Source: Candidatus Colimorpha pelethequi (GTDB lineage: Bacteria > Bacteroidota > Bacteroidia > Bacteroidales > P3). From it: a stretch of 64,000 nucleotides of DNA. Each line of letters opens with the position of its first letter. Position 1 is the stretch's first letter. Under the pieces are notes generated by a model. That model was not told the DNA's origin and made no database searches. It saw nothing but the letters and a program-made list of their open reading frames with translations. The translations under genes and the position numbers were made by a program. Below, in pieces: positions 31,335 to 39,933 of the stretch. The stretch lies in NCBI GenBank assembly GCA_018064245.1, contig JAGHVO010000004.1:42078-106077 (forward strand), given 5' to 3'.

Positions 31335-34300
31335 TTACGCTATCCAACCATATCCTTGAACTGCCATATCTACAAAATGGTTCATCAGGAGATTGGTCTT
31401 TTCATTGAATGCCACGCGATCATAACTTTCGGGAAGGTCGGTATTGAGGGATAACTGGATAAGTGCAAGCACCTTTTTACGAGGTTGCTCGTCTTTATAC
31501 CAATCCACAACCATGACCTTGTCTTTTTCCTCTATCAGTTTCTTATACAAGTTCTTCGAAGCAAGTATAACCTTCTGCTCTTCAGCCTTGCTCAGTTTCC
31601 TGCCTTGGCAAAGCAAGTCATAGATTTCGAGTTCTTCTTCCTGAAGATCCATTACAGTAGAACGACCTTGCTCACGTTTCATTTCTTCAACGAGCTGCAA
31701 GAGTTTCTCATAATAATCTTCGTTCTCCGTGCCACCCGCATTATACCGGTCAATGATATTCTTGTATCGCTGAGAGAATGCGACACGAGTACAGTTCTTG
31801 TTGATAAGCTGCTCCAAGGTCTTTTCTATGAATTCTCGTAGATTCTCAATCTCCAGAGCTTTGTAAGGTGTAGAGTTTATCTCTTTTCGCAAAGCTTCTA
31901 CATCGAGTTTGCTCAAATCAATGACCTTACCTTGGTGTATGCAATACTCCGATTGGTCCTCAGCCACCATGGCCGTTACACTATCGTCCAGGGTGTAAGC
32001 CATCCTTGCCTTGGCCTTATTGAGTTTCTCATCATCAATCTGATTGCAGAACAAACCATTAAGATAACTAAGGGGCGCAAACTTCTCGTTATACCAATCT
32101 CGCTCAAAGATTTCGGGCTTGCTGGCATCATAAAGATTCATCAGCAAGTTGCTGAGCACTTTGAAGCGGTCTTTCCACTCGTCCTTTTCGAGAATCTTCA
32201 GGTAGGCTGCACGAAGCAAGTCAAGTTGGTCGAGCGTATTGCTTTCTGCAATAATGTTCTCCATGCTGATGCCCAGTTTCAAAAGGAACGCTTCACATTC
32301 CAAGATGCACTCATCAATACTTTGTATAAGTGCTTCAATGTCCTTTGCCGGATATTCTGCATTGTCATCATTAGAAGCATAATCACTCAGAGCCTGTTGC
32401 ATGTATTTGAACACGTTCACATAGTCAACCACAATACCGCAGTTTTTGCCCGGATAAACTCGGTTGGCACGCGCGATGGCTTGCATCAGCGTATGTCCCT
32501 TCATGGGCTTGTCCAGATAGAGCGTTGACAATGAAGGCACGTCGAAGCCAGTAAGCCACATGGCACAGACGAACACAAGACATAGCGAATCGTCCTTATC
32601 CTTGAAGCGGTCTTCTATGTCCTTGCCGTCGGCCGTAATCTCATTCATCTTCTTGCGATGCAGCGTGATGTCAAGTCCCTGATCCTGGAACTTCTCCACC
32701 TCTTCAGCGTCTTCACTGATAACAACAGCCATCTCAACCTTATTCATATAGTTGAGTTGTTCTGTCAGTTTCTCTCGTTCTTCTTTTGTCTTGGCATTAT
32801 TGCGTTCCTTGACGAGAGCCTTCTTTCCCTCTGCCCAGTATTTCTGCACCTTGTCATACATCTTTACGGTAGTGTATTTGTCCACGCTCACCACCATTCC
32901 CTTGCCGAGGAAACCACGACGAGGAAAATGATATGCAATGTCTTGCGCTATCTTTTCCAGACGTTCATCACGCTTGATGACTTCAAGAATGCGAGATGAA
33001 GAGTTCTCCAGAAGTTCTCTTTCGCGGTCATTAAGCTGTTCTTCCTCTACAATGTCCACAATGTCGTCATCGAGGAAATTGTTTTCCAATCCTACTTCCG
33101 GCACTCTTCGACTATAAAACAATGGTACAGTGCTGCCGTCCGCAATAGCCTGAGCAAAGTTATACTCACTCACATAGTCCCCAAACCACTGATTGGTTAG
33201 TCGCTTACTTCCAAGCAAAGGTGTGCCGGTAAATGCAATGTAGTTGGCATTTGGCAGACCTGTGTGCATATTCTCCGCCAACTGCTTGTATTGCGTGCGA
33301 TGAGCTTCATCAACAAGGACAAAGATGTCATCACGTTCGGAAAGGACAGGATATTTCTTTGTCTTGTCATACTGGAACTTATGTATCAGCGTAAACACCA
33401 TGGGTTTGTTGCTACCCAGAAACTCACGCAACTGTACGGCGTTCTTTGGCTGACACTCTTCCTTGTCGCCAATAACCTCTGCCCTCACGAACGTCTTGTG
33501 TATCTGGGTGTCAAGGTCATCACGATCGGTAATGATGAGGAATGTGAAGTTGCCAGGCAGCTTGCGTTTGACCTTCCTTACGAACATCACCATCGAATAA
33601 CTTTTCCCCGAGCCCTGTGTATGCCAGAATACGCCAAGTTTACCATTCAGTTCATCCCTCTTGCCAACACGCTTCATCAAGTTGTTCACGCCAAGGTACT
33701 GGTGATTCTTTGCAATGATCTTGATGCGCTTATTGTCAAAGAAGATAAAGTTTTCAATGTAATCCAGCAAACGTTCCTTTCGGAATAAACCATCAATAAG
33801 ATTTGTTATGCTCAGACCATATTCTGCTATTTTATCACGGTCCAGTTTCTCCTTCTCATCGTCAACACGAAGCCATTCAAAGAAAAACTCATAGCCTGCA
33901 TTCCATGCACCGAGCTTTGTCTGCAAACCATTGCTGAGCACGCATATTTGGTTCAGGGCAAAGATGTTTGGAATATCCTGACGATACGACACGAGGTTCT
34001 TGTTGTACGATTCCTCCACCTTTACCGTAGAGTTCTTCAGTTCTATGAACACCACTGGCAAACCATTCACAAACAGCAGCACATCTGGACGGCGATAACG
34101 GAAATGACCTTTTATCCACATCTGGTTGACGCAATGGAAGTCGTTGTTCTCCACATTGTCGAAGTCGATGATCTTTACAATATCAAAGTCTTCCTTTCCG
34201 TTCTTCTTTACCTTGACCTTGATGCCGTTGCGTATTTGGTTGTAGAACTTATAGTTCGTGTCCACCATATCCGTGCCAGTATAGTCTTTGCGAAAATCTT

Positions 34301-34538
34301 TCACTATGCCAGCCAATGTCTCGGGGTCAATCTGTGGGTTGATGCGTTTCAAGGCATTGAAGAATATCTTTGGCAGAATACACTCCGTCACATTATCACG
34401 ACCAGTCATCGATACATCATCCTGTGCCTCAACGCTCGGGTCACACGCTATGCGTTGCCAACCATATTCTGGTAATGAAAGGCGATTGCAAATTGCTTGT
34501 TCTATATTGTCTTCGCTGATAAATGATTTCATAATCAA
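31335..34538 (-). CDS. hsdR: Type I restriction enzyme R subunit
   Basis: 1067 aa. Nuclease N-terminal region, SF2 helicase motifs (HTQGSGKS, VLVDEAHRTQY, AFTGTPL, QAIARANR) and a helical C-terminal domain. Confidence 0.95.
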   Translation of the reverse strand: MIMKSFISEDNIEQAICNRLSLPEYGWQRIACDPSVEAQDDVSMTGRDNVTECILPKIFFNALKRINPQIDPETLAGIVKDFRKDYTGTDMVDTNYKFYNQIRNGIKVKVKKNGKEDFDIVKIIDFDNVENNDFHCVNQMWIKGHFRYRRPDVLLFVNGLPVVFIELKNSTVKVEESYNKNLVSYRQDIPNIFALNQICVLSNGLQTKLGAWNAGYEFFFEWLRVDDEKEKLDRDKIAEYGLSITNLIDGLFRKERLLDYIENFIFFDNKRIKIIAKNHQYLGVNNLMKRVGKRDELNGKLGVFWHTQGSGKSYSMVMFVRKVKRKLPGNFTFLIITDRDDLDTQIHKTFVRAEVIGDKEECQPKNAVQLREFLGSNKPMVFTLIHKFQYDKTKKYPVLSERDDIFVLVDEAHRTQYKQLAENMHTGLPNANYIAFTGTPLLGSKRLTNQWFGDYVSEYNFAQAIADGSTVPLFYSRRVPEVGLENNFLDDDIVDIVEEEQLNDRERELLENSSSRILEVIKRDERLEKIAQDIAYHFPRRGFLGKGMVVSVDKYTTVKMYDKVQKYWAEGKKALVKERNNAKTKEEREKLTEQLNYMNKVEMAVVISEDAEEVEKFQDQGLDITLHRKKMNEITADGKDIEDRFKDKDDSLCLVFVCAMWLTGFDVPSLSTLYLDKPMKGHTLMQAIARANRVYPGKNCGIVVDYVNVFKYMQQALSDYASNDDNAEYPAKDIEALIQSIDECILECEAFLLKLGISMENIIAESNTLDQLDLLRAAYLKILEKDEWKDRFKVLSNLLMNLYDASKPEIFERDWYNEKFAPLSYLNGLFCNQIDDEKLNKAKARMAYTLDDSVTAMVAEDQSEYCIHQGKVIDLSKLDVEALRKEINSTPYKALEIENLREFIEKTLEQLINKNCTRVAFSQRYKNIIDRYNAGGTENEDYYEKLLQLVEEMKREQGRSTVMDLQEEELEIYDLLCQGRKLSKAEEQKVILASKNLYKKLIEEKDKVMVVDWYKDEQPRKKVLALIQLSLNTDLPESYDRVAFNEKTNLLMNHFVDMAVQGYGWIA

Positions 34539-34559
34539 TTTAGTTTTAGGTTGGTGAGT

Positions 34560-35801
34560 TTATCGAACCATTACTTCAAGTTTGCCACTCATCAAGCGAG
34601 GGAGGAGAAGGTCGCGCTGGCGAGTAAGAAGGGTATTTTGTTTTGCGTAAGAGAATATACTTATCAATAAAGGTTCAATTTCACTATTAAACTCTTTTAT
34701 TATATCCTCATCTGGAATGGTCATTTTTATTCTAAAAATATCTTGCTGACTTAATCCTGGTTGTGCCGCATTCCTATTAAGGTTTTGCATCAAAAGAAAG
34801 TATTCTTTTTGATGTAAGGTAAAATATATATAGTTTTTGTAAGATACGTTATTCGGTGATATAAAGAAAACGTGTTCATTTATAGAATATTCCTTAAATG
34901 GGAAATCATCTCTAAACAAAGTTACTTTTCCAATATATGCACCATCTTTGTATAATAGAATATCGTTGCCTGTATTTTTCCCACGTTTTAATTTACGATA
35001 AAATTCTATAGGAATTAGCTTGACTGAATGATAATCAAATTCTGCAAGATTTTTAATAACCTCTGCACCAAAAGATGGCATGCCTTCTGCTAGACTATCG
35101 TCTACTCCACCCTTAGGCCTTGAGCCTGTTTCTAAACAAATTCCCCAATCACCTAATCTTTCCACCTTCCACCCCTTCGGCAGTCCATTCTCCATTTCCA
35201 CATTCTCGTGTCCTGGGAAACGGAAGCGGACAAACCATTCTTTGTATAGGTTCTCTGCCATCTGCTCTAACAGACGGATGCGTTTGGTGTTGTTCTCTAT
35301 TAGGGTGTCGTAGGTTGAGAGAATGGAGGCTATCTTTTGCTGTATGGGGAGAGGGGGAATTGAGAACTTGATTTTTGCCAGTTTTTCCCAAGATAAATTG
35401 TCTTGGGTAGCACCCAATGCCATTGCTTGGCATCTTTTTTGCAAAATATCAAAAGAATACTTGACAAATCTCACATCAGCCTTGTTTGGATTAGCAATAA
35501 ATCCCATGATGCTATCTGGGAAACAAGCCTTAATTCCAAGAATTGAGGTGTCTGCAATATTCGCTGCAATAGTTATACAAAGAGTTTCTGGATTCCAAAG
35601 TTTGCTCTGTGCAAGTCCCTGTTCATTATATGTTTCTTCGAAATCAGTAAGATGTAACCCAGCTTTCTTAACATCTCCTGTCTGAATGAATGGATAATCT
35701 CCACCAAACAGAGATTCATCATTCCTTGGTCGATGTTTTGAACGCCCACGTGAGACCGACCCCAATTGGTCTAATGTTAGTTTTGGCCATTCCATACTCA
35801 C
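34560..35801 (-). CDS. hsdS: Type I restriction enzyme S (specificity) subunit, two TRDs
   Basis: 413 aa. Has the conserved central and C-terminal helices (PPLPIQQKIASILSTYDTLIENNTKRIRLLEQMAENLYKEWF; TLLTRQRDLLLPRLMSGKLEV). Confidence 0.9.
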   Translation of the reverse strand: MSMEWPKLTLDQLGSVSRGRSKHRPRNDESLFGGDYPFIQTGDVKKAGLHLTDFEETYNEQGLAQSKLWNPETLCITIAANIADTSILGIKACFPDSIMGFIANPNKADVRFVKYSFDILQKRCQAMALGATQDNLSWEKLAKIKFSIPPLPIQQKIASILSTYDTLIENNTKRIRLLEQMAENLYKEWFVRFRFPGHENVEMENGLPKGWKVERLGDWGICLETGSRPKGGVDDSLAEGMPSFGAEVIKNLAEFDYHSVKLIPIEFYRKLKRGKNTGNDILLYKDGAYIGKVTLFRDDFPFKEYSINEHVFFISPNNVSYKNYIYFTLHQKEYFLLMQNLNRNAAQPGLSQQDIFRIKMTIPDEDIIKEFNSEIEPLLISIFSYAKQNTLLTRQRDLLLPRLMSGKLEVMVR

Positions 35802-36730
35802 CCCTCCTTATTATTTATTTCAACATTCGACAATGTATCTTCGTTCCATTTCAATGGATTATTTACAATATATTCGGCAATTCGGCGGTATTCCATTTCA
35901 TTGCGGATGATATGGTCGTGATAATTGGCCTGCCACAATGGATTGTTTTTGTTGAATTTTTGATACACGTTCGTGTGGTTGCCGCATTGGTTGTCACGTC
36001 GTAGAGACGCACGGCCGTGCGTCTCTACGGTGCCGTGCGTTCCAACGGTGTCGTGCGTCCCAATGGTGCCGTGCGTTCCAACGGTGCCGTGCGTTCCAAC
36101 GGTGCCGTGCGTTCCAATGGTGTCGTGCGTTCCAATGGTGCCGTGCGTTCCAACGGTGCCGTGCGTCCCAACGGTGTCGTGCGTCCCAACGGTGTCGTGC
36201 GCCCCAACGGTGCCGTGCGCCCATACGTGGGCGTGCGTCCCCGCGTGGTCATCATCCGCATAACCATCACCCATGTGTTCGCCGTTCATGTTGTCAATCC
36301 AATCATCGATGCGGTTTATCGCAGACGATTTGAATCCTGCCACAAATGACGATATTGATTTTGGTTCGCGTTGTAGAGACGCACGGCCATATTGTAGAGA
36401 CGCACGGCCGTGCGTCTCTACAATACGGCCGTGGTCATCGTTATCCAATATCAAAATGGCGTGTATATGATTTGGCATAATCACATATTCACCCAAATAT
36501 AATTCATCACGCATTTCGAATGATTTCAGGAATTCGGCATTGACGATTTCTCCAATATTGTTCAATATCATTTGTCCATCAACAATTTTTCCAAATATCT
36601 GTTTGCGGTCATTTGTGACAATGGTAATGAAATAACATCCGTTTTGTGCATAATTCCATCCTCTCAATCGGTTTGAGGGAATTCTGTATTTGTTTAGGTA
36701 TCTGTCCGAACCGTTTATATCCATACTCAT
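35798..36730 (-). CDS. RAYT-like / IS200-type Y1 HUH protein with in-frame repeat insertions
   Basis: HUH motif in YVIMPNHIHAILIL and Tyr motif in LWQANYHDHIIRNE. ATGA overlaps with both neighbouring genes. (GTHGTV)n and ETHGRASLQ segments lie between the two motifs. Confidence 0.8.
   Translation of the reverse strand: MSMDINGSDRYLNKYRIPSNRLRGWNYAQNGCYFITIVTNDRKQIFGKIVDGQMILNNIGEIVNAEFLKSFEMRDELYLGEYVIMPNHIHAILILDNDDHGRIVETHGRASLQYGRASLQREPKSISSFVAGFKSSAINRIDDWIDNMNGEHMGDGYADDDHAGTHAHVWAHGTVGAHDTVGTHDTVGTHGTVGTHGTIGTHDTIGTHGTVGTHGTVGTHGTIGTHDTVGTHGTVETHGRASLRRDNQCGNHTNVYQKFNKNNPLWQANYHDHIIRNEMEYRRIAEYIVNNPLKWNEDTLSNVEINNKEG
36001..36028. repeat. perfect 28-bp palindrome GTAGAGACGCACGG|CCGTGCGTCTCTAC (REP-like) inside the RAYT-like ORF
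   Basis: Self-complementary, read directly. Confidence 0.9.
36029..36247. repeat. 18-bp tandem array (about 12 units of GGTGCCGTGCGTTCCAAC-like) inside the RAYT-like ORF
   Basis: Period-18 repeats with point variants. Each unit contains CCGTGCGT, which is the right arm of the adjacent palindrome. Confidence 0.9.
36371..36424. repeat. half copy plus perfect 34-bp palindrome ATTGTAGAGACGCACGG|CCGTGCGTCTCTACAAT inside the RAYT-like ORF
   Basis: TTGTAGAGACGCACGGCC at 36371-36388, then the full palindrome at 36391-36424. Confidence 0.9.
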
Positions 36731-37836
36731 TCTTCCTTTCCATTTAGTTCGTTATATTCCTCAATCCACTCACGCAGTTTCTGCTGCAGCAAAGCCTTGT
36801 CGGGCAAGCAGAGGGCGTACTGCTGGGCGTAGATGTTGGCATCTTGTGGTAGCGTCAACTCTACGAGGGCGTCATTCTTGCTCGGGCAAAGCAAGATACC
36901 TATGGTAGGTTTCTCAAACTCCAATCGCTTGTATCGGTCGAAATAGTTCACATACATGAGCATCTGACCAAGATCCTGATGTGACAACTTATCTACCTTC
37001 AAGTCAACGAGTACGTAGCATTGCAGGATGCGATTGTAAAGCACAAGGTCGACATAGAAATTGTCCTCATCGAAAGTGAACCGTTTCTGGCGCCCCTCAA
37101 ACAGGAACCCCTTGCCACACTCCAGAAGGAAATCCTCTATCTTGTCGAGAATTGCTGTTTCAAGTTTATTTTCAGTATATGCAGCTTCTGGTTTCAAACC
37201 CACAAACTCAAGCACCAAAGGATTCTTGATGATGTCGGATGGTTTTTCGATGGTCTGACCTTCGGTCGCGAGTCGCATCACCTCAGCCTTATCTCGACTC
37301 AGAGCCAGACGTTCGTAAAGACTGCTGCTAACTTGCCGTTGCAGTTGCCGTTTACTCCATTGTTGATTATATGCCTCTAGCTCATAGAAACTACGAGCAT
37401 CAGGATTATCTTCTCGCATTATGATTTGATAATGTGTCCAAGGCAATATGAATGAAGGATTTGCTGACCGCTGGTCATCATTTTGATTTTGCTGACCACT
37501 GGTTAGCATTTTAGAATACACCATATAAAACTGGCGCATACTACGCAAGTTAGCATACGACCATCCTGCTCCATACTTCTCCGTCAGTCTTGCTGATAGT
37601 CGCTTCAACACGCCCTTGCCATACTCTGCCCGGGAATTACCCCCCTGCTCAAACTCCACTATATACTGCCCCACGCCATAGTAGGTATAAACCATTGCGC
37701 TGTTCACGGTCTTTGCTATTTGCGTGCGGCTCTCATCAATGAGATTGGCAATGTGATCAAACAGAGTGTCTTCAGAAACTATCGCCGAATTCAACTTTCC
37801 GATGTCTTTATTTTCCTTCATGGTTTTATTCTCCAA
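36727..37836 (-). CDS. DUF1016/YhcG-family PD-(D/E)XK nuclease domain protein
   Basis: 369 aa. The N-terminal region ...TVNSAMVYTYYGVGQYIVEFEQGG..RAEYGKGVLKRLS..L and the C-terminal YVDLVLYN....CYVLVDLKVDKL nuclease core are typical of YhcG. Confidence 0.8.
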   Translation of the reverse strand: MENKTMKENKDIGKLNSAIVSEDTLFDHIANLIDESRTQIAKTVNSAMVYTYYGVGQYIVEFEQGGNSRAEYGKGVLKRLSARLTEKYGAGWSYANLRSMRQFYMVYSKMLTSGQQNQNDDQRSANPSFILPWTHYQIIMREDNPDARSFYELEAYNQQWSKRQLQRQVSSSLYERLALSRDKAEVMRLATEGQTIEKPSDIIKNPLVLEFVGLKPEAAYTENKLETAILDKIEDFLLECGKGFLFEGRQKRFTFDEDNFYVDLVLYNRILQCYVLVDLKVDKLSHQDLGQMLMYVNYFDRYKRLEFEKPTIGILLCPSKNDALVELTLPQDANIYAQQYALCLPDKALLQQKLREWIEEYNELNGKEE

Positions 37837-39529
37837 ACAATTCTTTCAAGTTCTTTTCAATCTCACTCTCCAATGTCTTCGCCTCGTTGGAGAGGGCAGA
37901 GAACTCACTATTGAGGTTGAGTATTTCGGCACGGAACTCTTCTTCCGTCATTCCATCATCCTCAATCACCACGCCCACATAGCGGCCAGCATTGAGGCTG
38001 TAGTCGTTGTCGATGATGCCATCCTCGCCATCCAGTTTGGCAACTTTGCACAATCCTATCACATCCTGGTATTTGCCATCGGGCCAACGCTTCAGAAGCC
38101 AATCTATCTGCGCTTGCCAGTAGTTATCGTTTTCGTTATCGTTGAGACGAGTCTTGTACTCGTCGATCAATGCCCAGAATGCATCGCTGTCACCCTCATA
38201 GAGGCGGCTGATGATGCCAAGGTTCTTGATCTGCTCGTCAGAGAATTTGCGATGAGCCCTATCTACCTGTGTGAAGATATTGCGAGCATCAATGAAGAGA
38301 ATCTCATCACGCTTGGTTCTTTGCTTGTTGAAGAACCAAAGTGTGGCAGGGAGCGTAACAGTTGAGAACATATTGCTTGGGAGCGTCACCATCTGACTGA
38401 TGATGCCATCCTCTATCATCTTCTTACGTATCTCCAGTTCTGAGCCACCAGCATCGCTTGCAGAGTTCGCCATTACAAGTGCCGCCTTGCCATTGTCATT
38501 AAGTGCTGTAGCGAAATAGCCAATCCACAAATAGTTGGCATTAGGTACGGTTTCCTTCTTGTCTCCCGATTTTTTGCCAGAGTTTGTCTTGTTGCGAGGC
38601 ACTCCGTAGGTATTGAAACGGGCATCGCCAACCACTTTCTCCACAACCACCTCATCGACATTAAACGGCGGATTTGCCATCACATAGTCGAACTGACCGA
38701 ATGCACTATATGGGTCGCTATAGAAGGAGTTCGCTTCTGTAATCTCACCACGTATATTGTTAAGCAAAAGGTTCATCTTTGCCAACTTCACGGTGTCGGG
38801 TTCCTTCTCCACACCATAGCAACGGAAATGCATCATTTCGTCGTTTGTTGCATTATGACGATGCATGTAGCGAGCCGCCTGTACGAACATACCGCCCGAA
38901 CCGCAAGCTGGGTCAAGGAATTTCTTGTCACCAGTTGTTGGCTGAAGCACTTCTACCATATATTGTACTACGCTGGCAGGAGTATAGAATGCTCCACCAC
39001 CCTGACCTTCAGCAAGAGCAAAGTTGCCAAGGAAGTACTCATAAATCTGACCAAAGATGTCAATACTGATGTCTTCCGGAATATCTTTGAACACTCGAAC
39101 AATACGACTCAAAAGTTCTGGTTCCTCTTCGGGAACCAACTGACCATACACTTCCTTTGGCAACACACCTTCCATTCGTGGATTCTCACGTTCGATGGCT
39201 TCCATGGCACGCTTCACGAGCAATGCTTTGTTGGCATCGTCTGGAGCATCGTTCAGGTAGTCAAAGTAGGCACATTCTGGAAGGTAGAAACCGCATTTCT
39301 CTACTGCAACATCTTTGTATTCCTTCTCCATACGAGTACCCTTATACTGATTGTACTCAGCATCAATCTCTTCTTTGTGCTGTTTGAAAAGCACATCCGC
39401 ATAACGAAGGAAGATTAAGCCAAGGATTGGCTGCCCGTACTTGTTGGCTGCCAAGTGGGCACCTGCACGAAGCATATCTGCCGAGTGCCAGAGGTTATCT
39501 TTAAGTGTTTTGAGTTCTATGTCTGTCAT
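37826..39529 (-). CDS. hsdM: Type I restriction-modification N6-adenine DNA methyltransferase subunit
   Basis: 567 aa. HsdM N-terminal domain, SAM motif LDPACGSGGMF and catalytic NPPF. Confidence 0.95.
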   Translation of the reverse strand: MTDIELKTLKDNLWHSADMLRAGAHLAANKYGQPILGLIFLRYADVLFKQHKEEIDAEYNQYKGTRMEKEYKDVAVEKCGFYLPECAYFDYLNDAPDDANKALLVKRAMEAIERENPRMEGVLPKEVYGQLVPEEEPELLSRIVRVFKDIPEDISIDIFGQIYEYFLGNFALAEGQGGGAFYTPASVVQYMVEVLQPTTGDKKFLDPACGSGGMFVQAARYMHRHNATNDEMMHFRCYGVEKEPDTVKLAKMNLLLNNIRGEITEANSFYSDPYSAFGQFDYVMANPPFNVDEVVVEKVVGDARFNTYGVPRNKTNSGKKSGDKKETVPNANYLWIGYFATALNDNGKAALVMANSASDAGGSELEIRKKMIEDGIISQMVTLPSNMFSTVTLPATLWFFNKQRTKRDEILFIDARNIFTQVDRAHRKFSDEQIKNLGIISRLYEGDSDAFWALIDEYKTRLNDNENDNYWQAQIDWLLKRWPDGKYQDVIGLCKVAKLDGEDGIIDNDYSLNAGRYVGVVIEDDGMTEEEFRAEILNLNSEFSALSNEAKTLESEIEKNLKELFGE

Positions 39530-39536
39530 AGGTGTA

Positions 39537-39740
39537 TTACATTTGGGTGTCGTTAAGGAGATATTTCACATCAACTTCAAGAAGTTTTGCTATCTTGTCT
39601 AAAGTCTGCAAGTCTGGTTGAATACTGTTACTGCACCACTTGCTAACGGTGCATGGTGTTTTGCCAATCTCTTCTGCTAGCCACTTGCCGGTTTTACCCT
39701 TTTCTACAAGGACAACCTTGATTCTATTTAGATTTGCCAT
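39537..39740 (-). CDS. XRE-family helix-turn-helix transcriptional regulator (candidate controller of the hsd operon)
   Basis: MANLNRIKVVLVEKGKTGKWLAEEIGKTPCTVSKWCSN. It sits 7 nt upstream of hsdM. The ATG at 39740 fits the -7 box at 39768-39775. Confidence 0.8.
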   Translation of the reverse strand: MANLNRIKVVLVEKGKTGKWLAEEIGKTPCTVSKWCSNSIQPDLQTLDKIAKLLEVDVKYLLNDTQM

Positions 39741-39767
39741 ATTGGTATAATTGATTATAATTTGATG

Positions 39768-39775
39768 CAAAGGTA
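39768..39775 (-). promoter_or_regulatory. candidate -7 promoter box (TACCTTTG) for the HTH-hsd operon
   Basis: Plus-strand CAAAGGTA lies 28 nt upstream of the ATG at 39740. Confidence 0.45.
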
Positions 39776-39933
39776 TCAAAATTCTATGACATAAACGATT
39801 GTTCTGCTAAGAAAAGTTACGCAAGGTCCTATAATTTCACGGAAATTTTTAGGGATTGCCACCTGAAAATCCCACTTTTCGGTGTTTTTTTTATCTAATT
39901 GTTGAAACGACAATGAGGTTCGTTTTTATTTCG

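Follow-up and report, generated by a model that had tools for sequence, protein, structure and literature searches.

The closest described relatives of the gene considered here belong to subclass 2.4 of TnpA_REP, the tyrosine transposases associated with repetitive extragenic palindromes (REPs), also called RAYTs. Quentin, Siguier, Chandler and Fichant (2018; PMC6006769) defined this subclass, which corresponds to RAYT group 4 of Bertels et al. (2017), by the signatures NH[IFV]H, WQ and YIxNNP, and described its REPs as double-foot palindromes that begin with 5' GT[AG]G and carry the complement C[TC]AC at their 3' end. In the same study REPs were reported in frame between the HuH and Tyr motifs, short DNA repeats explained the variable insertion domain of the proteins, and REPs flanking the gene were usual. 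We analyzed a gene of this kind in Candidatus Colimorpha pelethequi (assembly GCA_018064245.1, contig JAGHVO010000004.1, positions 42,078 to 106,077; this stretch of 64,000 nt is referred to as the window). The gene occupies positions 35798-36730 of the window on the minus strand and encodes 310 amino acids. It is very probably an intact member of subclass 2.4, a single-stranded DNA (ssDNA) nuclease/transferase, that carries copies of its own cognate REP in two variable loops, one between strand beta3 and helix alphaC and the other between helix alphaC and strand beta4.

The presence of REPs inside a RAYT gene was already published in 2018, and the gene in the window is a further clear example of it. 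The proposal in the original prediction of a RAYT whose own gene carries its substrate holds, and it is the published description of subclass 2.4, not a new idea. The likeness extends to the motifs, the double-foot REP, the in-frame position of the REPs, the repeat-built domain and the occurrence in Bacteroidetes. The gene differs from the published description in that it lacks flanking REPs, since it overlaps or nearly abuts its neighbors in the operon, and in that both of its variable loops are occupied at once. It also differs in lying within a Type I restriction-modification (R-M) operon. This context is mentioned neither by Quentin 2018 nor by Bertels 2017 nor elsewhere in the literature searched, the coverage of which was incomplete, so that its absence there is no proof of novelty.

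Three other systems are comparable in part. The TnpA_REP of E. coli (YafM, structure 4ER8; Messing et al. 2012, PMC3479197) shares the Y1 HUH fold, its HUH motif, Tyr and Asn ligand align with those of the window protein, and its REPs begin with 5' GTAG. Of its GTAG-binding residues (W94, Q95, W99, E100, H101 and R104 in Fig. S11 of Quentin 2018), four out of six are identical (W, Q, H, R). However, it belongs to subclass 2.2 (DHLH, WE, YIHYNP), its REPs are bulged and lie outside the gene, sequence similarity is weak, and the protein has only 165 amino acids, with 54 between HUH and Tyr compared with about 197 in the window protein. Intragenic REPs and Rickettsia palindromic elements have been described in frame, usually in loops or linkers, where they add 10-80 residues (Di Nocera et al. 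2013, PMC3733652). These resemble the present case in being palindromic repeats in frame in coding genes, whereas here the host gene encodes the REP-recognizing enzyme itself and the insertion is family-wide, not sporadic. The TnpA proteins of IS200/IS605 insertion sequences (IS608, ISDra2) have the same fold and chemistry and likewise recognize DNA hairpins and a guide tetranucleotide, but they are less than half the length of the window protein, and RAYTs, for their part, behave like domesticated genes present in single copy. We considered an IS200/IS605 insertion sequence for this locus and rejected it, as we found no insertion sequence ends, no tnpB partner and only a single copy in the window, and its hsd neighbors overlap it or nearly abut.

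The original prediction of a RAYT-type Y1 HUH enzyme encoded by the 310-residue minus-strand open reading frame (ORF) was confirmed by the ORF itself, which begins with ATG, by its motifs, by the match to 4ER8 and by structure modeling. The HUH motif MPNHIHAIL (residues 85-93; 36452-36478, minus strand) is read directly from the sequence and is invariant in alignments A1 and A3, with H88 and H90 unchanged in 64 sequences. The motif EYIVNNP (35855-35875, minus strand), likewise invariant in both alignments, contains the catalytic tyrosine, Y287, which aligns with the catalytic Y115 of 4ER8, and N291, a metal ligand counterpart, aligns with N119. Together, PNHIHA (residues 86-91), W266-Q267 and Y287-IVNNP are the published subclass 2.4 signatures. 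The WQ motif LWQANYHDHIIRN (35900-35938, minus strand) aligns with residues 93-105 of 4ER8 and is the counterpart of the GTAG-binding segment of the E. coli protein. The segment WQANYHDHIIRNE / WQANYHDHIIRN, which had been taken for the catalytic tyrosine motif, corresponds to this binding segment (W94-R104), and the distance from HUH to the catalytic tyrosine, previously put at about 175 residues, is accordingly about 197 to Y287.

A search with the protein returned 3142 homologues, and 4ER8 was the sole match by sequence in the PDB (E = 0.0014). An AlphaFold 2 model built from 64 homologues has a core with a predicted local distance difference test score (pLDDT) of >90 at about residues 30-100, 125-150 and 255-300. 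The pLDDT falls below 50 at residues 103-122 and 163-252, which are exactly the parts encoded by the REPs and the repeat array. Helix alphaC, between the two insertion sites, is modeled with high pLDDT as residues 126-152; its conserved segment REPKSISSFVAGFKSS...IDDWIDN (36290-36370, minus strand) occupies columns that are nearly invariant in A1 and A3. In a Foldseek comparison with the PDB, the top 30 matches were Y1 transposases (ISDra2, IS608/ISHp608, IS200, Sulfolobus tokodaii) or 4ER8, the latter with a TM-score of 0.60 normalized to the target. The ratio of nonsynonymous to synonymous substitution rates (dN/dS) in the catalytic core is 0.06 against the homologue P0024 and 0.13-0.17 against P0016. 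The core is thus under purifying selection, and we conclude that the gene is not a pseudogene.

Both loops on either side of helix alphaC contain palindromic DNA in frame. A perfect 28-nt palindrome, GTAGAGACGCACGGCCGTGCGTCTCTAC, is present at 36001-36028 (site B) and again at 36394-36421 (site A), with feet of the double-foot type (5' GTAG ... CTAC 3'). At site A, between strand beta3 with its HUH motif and helix alphaC, the copy is perfect over 34-36 nt, including a 34-nt double-foot palindrome at 36391-36424, and lies in a 52-nt palindrome that is 96% self-complementary (36382-36433, translated IVETHGRASLQY). Repeat-family analysis places a duplicated right half of this REP, translated GRASLQR and with a 21-nt period, at 36368-36388, within which the half copy is at 36371-36388. 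At site B, between helix alphaC and strand beta4, the palindrome is perfect over 30 nt (36000-36029, translated VETHGRASLR). The two full copies and the half copy are all in the VETHGRASL frame. The coordinates originally given for the palindromes at 36391-36424 and 36001-36028 and for the half copy at 36371-36388 were reproduced, and re-reading the inserts gave the same translations (ETHGRASLQ, YGRASLQ and (GTHGTV)n). None of 100 shuffled windows contained any match to GTAGAGACGCACGGCCGTGCGTCTCTAC.

The internal palindromes are REPs of a type recognized by enzymes of this family: they start with GTAG, and the subclass 2.4 REPs on record include their exact sequence. Table S1 of PMC6006769 lists the exact 28-mer for Chloroflexus aggregans, as well as sister REPs from Chlorobium, Cyanothece and Calothrix that share its outer stem but differ in the inner one. 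The hairpins are predicted to be very stable, with free energies of -45.6 kcal/mol as RNA and -27.8 as DNA at site A (z-score about -12) and of -23.1 and -14.7, respectively, at site B; as RNA, the z-scores of both hairpins range from -7 to -13. Since the REPs of sites A and B are identical and self-complementary, the two copies could also base-pair with one another over a distance of about 365 nt (36000-36440), and the minimum-energy RNA fold of this interval uses the long-range pairing (z = -5). Similarities in Rfam between the long hairpin and plant and animal miRNA precursor models (20-29 bits, gathering scores 76-330) were sub-threshold and were dismissed as chance.

Beside the site B REP, positions 36029-36247 (minus strand) hold about 12 tandem units of 18 nt with the consensus GTTGGAACGCACGGCACC, translated VGTHGT. 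The original count of about 12 in-frame units agrees with Tandem Repeats Finder (period 18, 12.7 copies, 89% matches, 36014-36241). Read on the coding strand, 12 units of GTTGGAACGCACGGCACC are followed, as the next unit and in the same register, by the left half of the REP, GTAGAGACGCACGGCCGT (VETHGR), which is identical to the array unit at 12 of 18 positions and contains the 9-nt core ACGCACGGC exactly. From the register and the shared core we conclude that the array is a head-to-tail run of diverged REP left arms, one per unit. The array folds into less structure than shuffled sequences (z +1.8 to +2.3) and is predicted by AlphaFold 2 as a disordered peripheral loop (pLDDT <50), and the repeat-rich stretch has 59% G+C compared with about 40% in the rest of the gene and the flanks. 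Matches of the protein to Pfam 'Collagen' and to the NCBIfam collagen-like adhesin and His-Xaa-Ser models fall on this (GTHGTV)n array and were rejected as low-complexity.

The architecture recurs in relatives. We scanned metagenomes for loci by protein motif alone, leaving the REP sequence unused, and retained 80 loci, of which 73 have complete genes with both the N-terminal and the C-terminal core segments. A perfect palindrome with arms of at least 9 bp lies between HUH and Tyr in 52 of these 73 (71%). The palindrome sequence differs between lineages of relatives. In nine loci (L167, L172, L178, L196, L195, L159, L134, L137 and L154) the internal palindrome has the sequence of the flanking REPs, and we therefore take the internal copy to be the cognate REP. 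The statement that REPs normally flank the gene is borne out in several relatives, such as L006, L134, L137, L154 and L196, and does not extend to the window gene, which has no intergenic room for them.

At the protein level, VETHGRASL(Q/P/R) recurs in alignments of homologues at site A, after the HUH strand, and at site B, from alphaC to the WQ strand. The ETHGRAS motif is missing from 11 of 107 scorable close homologues, all of which keep the catalytic motifs. The identical 28-mer is found in RAYT genes whose proteins are only 31-56% identical to that of the window, and it is unchanged between the window gene and P0016 despite a synonymous divergence (dS) of about 0.45. Its identity in genes for such diverged proteins points to a constraint on the DNA and not on the peptide. 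In-frame tandem arrays between HUH and Tyr are present in 32 of 97 RAYT genes, with up to 18 copies and periods of 9-27 nt; in the comparison with phase-variable loci, the periods in these 32 span 9-81 nt and are multiples of three except for one overlapping 10-nt call by Tandem Repeats Finder. At one conserved locus (P0001-P0023) the proteins range from 223 to 258 amino acids and differ by whole GNVG[GD] units (15 nt, 5 amino acids). The exact window protein was absent from database records, and no same-species sequences turned up for a comparison of the 18-nt copy number.

The REP is not confined to RAYT genes. We searched one genome per species with its 24-nt core AGAGACGCACGGCCGTGCGTCTCT and found at least 136 copies in at least 120 loci (L008-L127). 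The core is present in more than 12 phyla, in most cases as part of the complete 28-mer with its GTAG/CTAC feet, and the RAYT proteins of the genes that carry it diverge to 30-50% identity. The phyla among the matches listed include Bacteroidota, Spirochaetota, Desulfobacterota, Chloroflexota, Planctomycetota, Proteobacteria and Fibrobacterota, as well as Calditrichota, Omnitrophota, Patescibacteria, Armatimonadota, Firmicutes and others. Of the 136 copies listed, RAYT genes contain about 16, and about 10 others are found at a distance of 50-330 bp from a RAYT gene. About 100 are in loci without a RAYT gene, showing that the REP is dispersed elsewhere in genomes.

Among the same matches, the double-foot REP frequently lies inside genes other than RAYT genes: 59 of the 136 copies fall within stop-to-stop ORFs that are 150 codons or longer, in some cases more than 1000 codons. 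Copies in long ORFs are read as VETHGRAS or RDARPCVS, so that both stop-free frames are used; the RDARPCVST frame is common in host genes other than RAYT genes. Five copies in a Prolixibacteraceae locus (L089 6617-7820) are spaced by 309, 309, 250 and 309 nt, a pattern suggestive of a longer tandem repeat interspersed with REPs.

Several observations weigh against the interpretation of the window gene as an intact subclass 2.4 RAYT with REPs accumulated in its loops. The scores of the protein fall just under the cutoffs of both family models, NCBIfam REP_Tyr_transpos (77.2 bits in two stretches, cutoff 80) and Pfam Y1_Tnp (18.1, cutoff 23), probably because the domain is split by the inserts. 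No REP copy was found outside the ORF within the 64-kb window, even when 3 mismatches were allowed, and the REPtron layout is therefore absent, with no REPs flanking the gene within the window; we attribute this to the tight gene junctions, which leave no intergenic space. Within RAYT genes (L002-L207), the VETHGRASL frame accounts for 33 of 36 REP copies. Purely neutral, repeated insertion does not predict such a bias, which suggests either common ancestry or a constraint at the peptide level. Finally, the closest relative, P0024 (L001 1851-2432; 83% identical), has neither REPs nor an array and could have been a clean empty site. We rejected it as such since part of helix alphaC is missing: the conserved start of the helix, REPKSISSFVA, is replaced by IGTDDIGT, which leaves the insertion boundaries undefined. 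P0024 may instead derive from a deletion between the two insertion sites.

We propose that the enzyme, as a Y1 HUH ssDNA nuclease/transferase, would recognize REP hairpins with a 5' GTAG and would act close to its own gene, so that REPs would accumulate in and near it. Survival would be limited to copies that lie in a tolerant loop and in a frame without stops, and internal REPs would persist because the 28-mer is stop-free in two of three frames and the loops tolerate extra residues. The array would have arisen by head-to-tail amplification of the REP left arm, probably at the hairpin, either by slipped-strand misalignment or through repeated rounds of cleavage and rejoining. Its copy number would then drift by whole codons only, with little effect of the inserts on activity, and array length is likely to be polymorphic. 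A competing account, possible if doubtful, is that the internal REP would be kept by selection, either to tie the enzyme to its substrate, such that transfer of the gene carries a founder REP, or for autoregulation through binding to its own gene or mRNA. The retention of an internal palindrome in 71% of relatives, where it co-varies with the flanking REPs, would fit such selection, as would the identity of the 28-mer in genes that are 31-56% identical in protein and of the 24-nt core in more than 12 phyla. The frame bias of 33 to 3 points in the same direction, and the internal REPs are the only REPs of the window gene, which lacks intergenic flanks. Frame bias, conservation at the DNA level and the missing flanking space thus leave room for a REP maintained as a tie between substrate and enzyme. 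However, the 11 of 107 close homologues without ETHGRAS keep all catalytic motifs, and repeated conversion from genomic REP copies would preserve the sequence equally well.

Other explanations place the function of the repeats in the operon or in the array. In E. coli, REPs can shield upstream mRNA against 3' exonucleases, and it is advantageous for Type I systems if methylation precedes restriction. The very stable hairpins (-23 to -46 kcal/mol), placed between hsdM and hsdS/hsdR, might stabilize the upstream hsdM-DUF1016 transcript or slow ribosomes or RNA polymerase, lowering hsdS/hsdR relative to hsdM. We consider such a role at the RNA level improbable: the hairpins are translated and ribosomes must unwind them, and most relatives with internal REPs lie outside any R-M operon, which ties the REPs to the RAYT gene and not to the operon. 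The more specific suggestion that the palindromes act as intra-operon attenuators is not supported, as neither hairpin is followed by a T-run and a terminator scan found nothing there. It is very unlikely that the 18-nt array is a contingency locus, with its copy number switching or tuning a phenotype. This idea, also put forward in the original prediction, is right in that array length varies: the unit number of arrays next to internal REPs differs among near-identical relatives (in 5-residue steps at one locus), and a third of relatives carry such arrays. The on/off switch does not follow, because the 18-nt unit and, but for the one overlapping call, all periods in the family are multiples of three and cannot shift the frame; moreover, the array lies in a predicted disordered peripheral loop. 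An assembly artefact or a decaying pseudogene is the explanation to which we give the least credence. Palindromes and tandem arrays are hard to assemble from short reads, and the exact protein appears in no other record. Nevertheless, the reading frame stays open over all 933 nt, 228 of them repeats, with all catalytic residues intact, dN/dS is 0.06-0.17, and the architecture recurs in dozens of independent assemblies.

The gene is the third of five in a Type I R-M operon on the minus strand (31335-39529), in the order hsdM, DUF1016/YhcG nuclease, RAYT, hsdS, hsdR. The first gene, at 37826-39529, encodes the Type I methyltransferase HsdM (Pfam N6_Mtase and HsdM_N; PADLOC MTase_I). It is followed at 36727-37836 by the gene for a DUF1016/YhcG PD-(D/E)xK nuclease, identified by Pfam and by the PADLOC candidate defence system PDC-S02 (E = 5e-134). 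Downstream of the RAYT gene are hsdS, for the specificity subunit (34560-35801; Pfam Methylase_S), which starts at or just after the RAYT stop, and hsdR, for the restriction subunit (31335-34538; Pfam HSDR_N, SWI2_SNF2 and T1RH-like_C; PADLOC REase_I). PADLOC has no model for the RAYT. ATGA overlaps had been claimed on both sides of the RAYT gene. The upstream one is correct, with the DUF1016 stop overlapping the RAYT start by ATGA, and the downstream one is not: the junction is GTGA if hsdS starts at the GTG at 35801, or a 2-nt gap after the stop if it starts at the ATG at 35795.

The R-M setting is not restricted to the window. With HsdM, HsdS and HsdR of the window as tblastn queries, Type I genes were found beside the RAYT gene in 14 of 99 RAYT-bearing loci, in all 14 on the same strand as the RAYT gene and in varying order. 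None of 101 REP-bearing control loci without a RAYT gene, among the matches listed, had Type I genes (Fisher P = 3e-5). Loci with a RAYT gene in a Type I R-M context include L001, L046, L122, L133, L148, L158, L139 and L175, as well as L177, L132, L152, L135, L129, L086 and L093. The order hsdM-RAYT-hsdS is common to L001 and L046, and the adjacency of DUF1016 and RAYT is also seen in L021.

The borders of the RAYT gene in the window (35791-35821 and 36720-36750) share a 31-nt direct repeat that is 77% identical and includes TGAGTATGGA exactly. The end of the DUF1016 protein in the window (ELNGKEE) is the C-terminus of the RAYT in L001 (L001 2390-2520), and in L001 a remnant duplicate of the hsdM 3' end follows the RAYT gene. 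The border repeats and the L001 remnant resemble scars left when a cassette was inserted through recombination at gene junctions. Directly upstream of hsdM, an 80-residue ORF (39537-39779, minus strand) matches the N-terminal part of PADLOC RmrA, PDC-M64 and HTH_VI; our guess is that it may encode a small helix-turn-helix regulator of the R-M operon. In another locus (L005 8001-13738), the RAYT homologue P0025, which has a site B REP, is the immediate upstream neighbor of a cas9-cas1-cas2 locus and thus likewise adjoins a defence locus.

It is conceivable, if unlikely, that RAYT genes of this type are self-contained units of enzyme and substrate that need no intergenic flanks and repeatedly lodge, co-directionally, in horizontally mobile Type I R-M operons. 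This could explain the presence of the identical REP core in more than 12 phyla. The association might also be functional, for example through a hairpin-specific ssDNA nuclease in defence or through control or rearrangement of hsd genes.

By itself, the core finding matters little, since it adds one clear example to a published phenomenon. As an example it is nonetheless a good one: inserts fill both permissive loops, a complete REP closes the 12-unit array of half-REPs, and the 64 kb contain no REP outside the gene. Two observations could reach further if upheld in a proper census: the occurrence of subclass 2.4 RAYTs in Type I R-M operons far above that in REP-bearing control regions, and the conservation to the base of a 24-28-nt REP across many phyla, in host genes that are 30-50% identical. 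The association with R-M systems and the identity of the REP across phyla bear on the role and the spread of single-copy 'domesticated' RAYTs.

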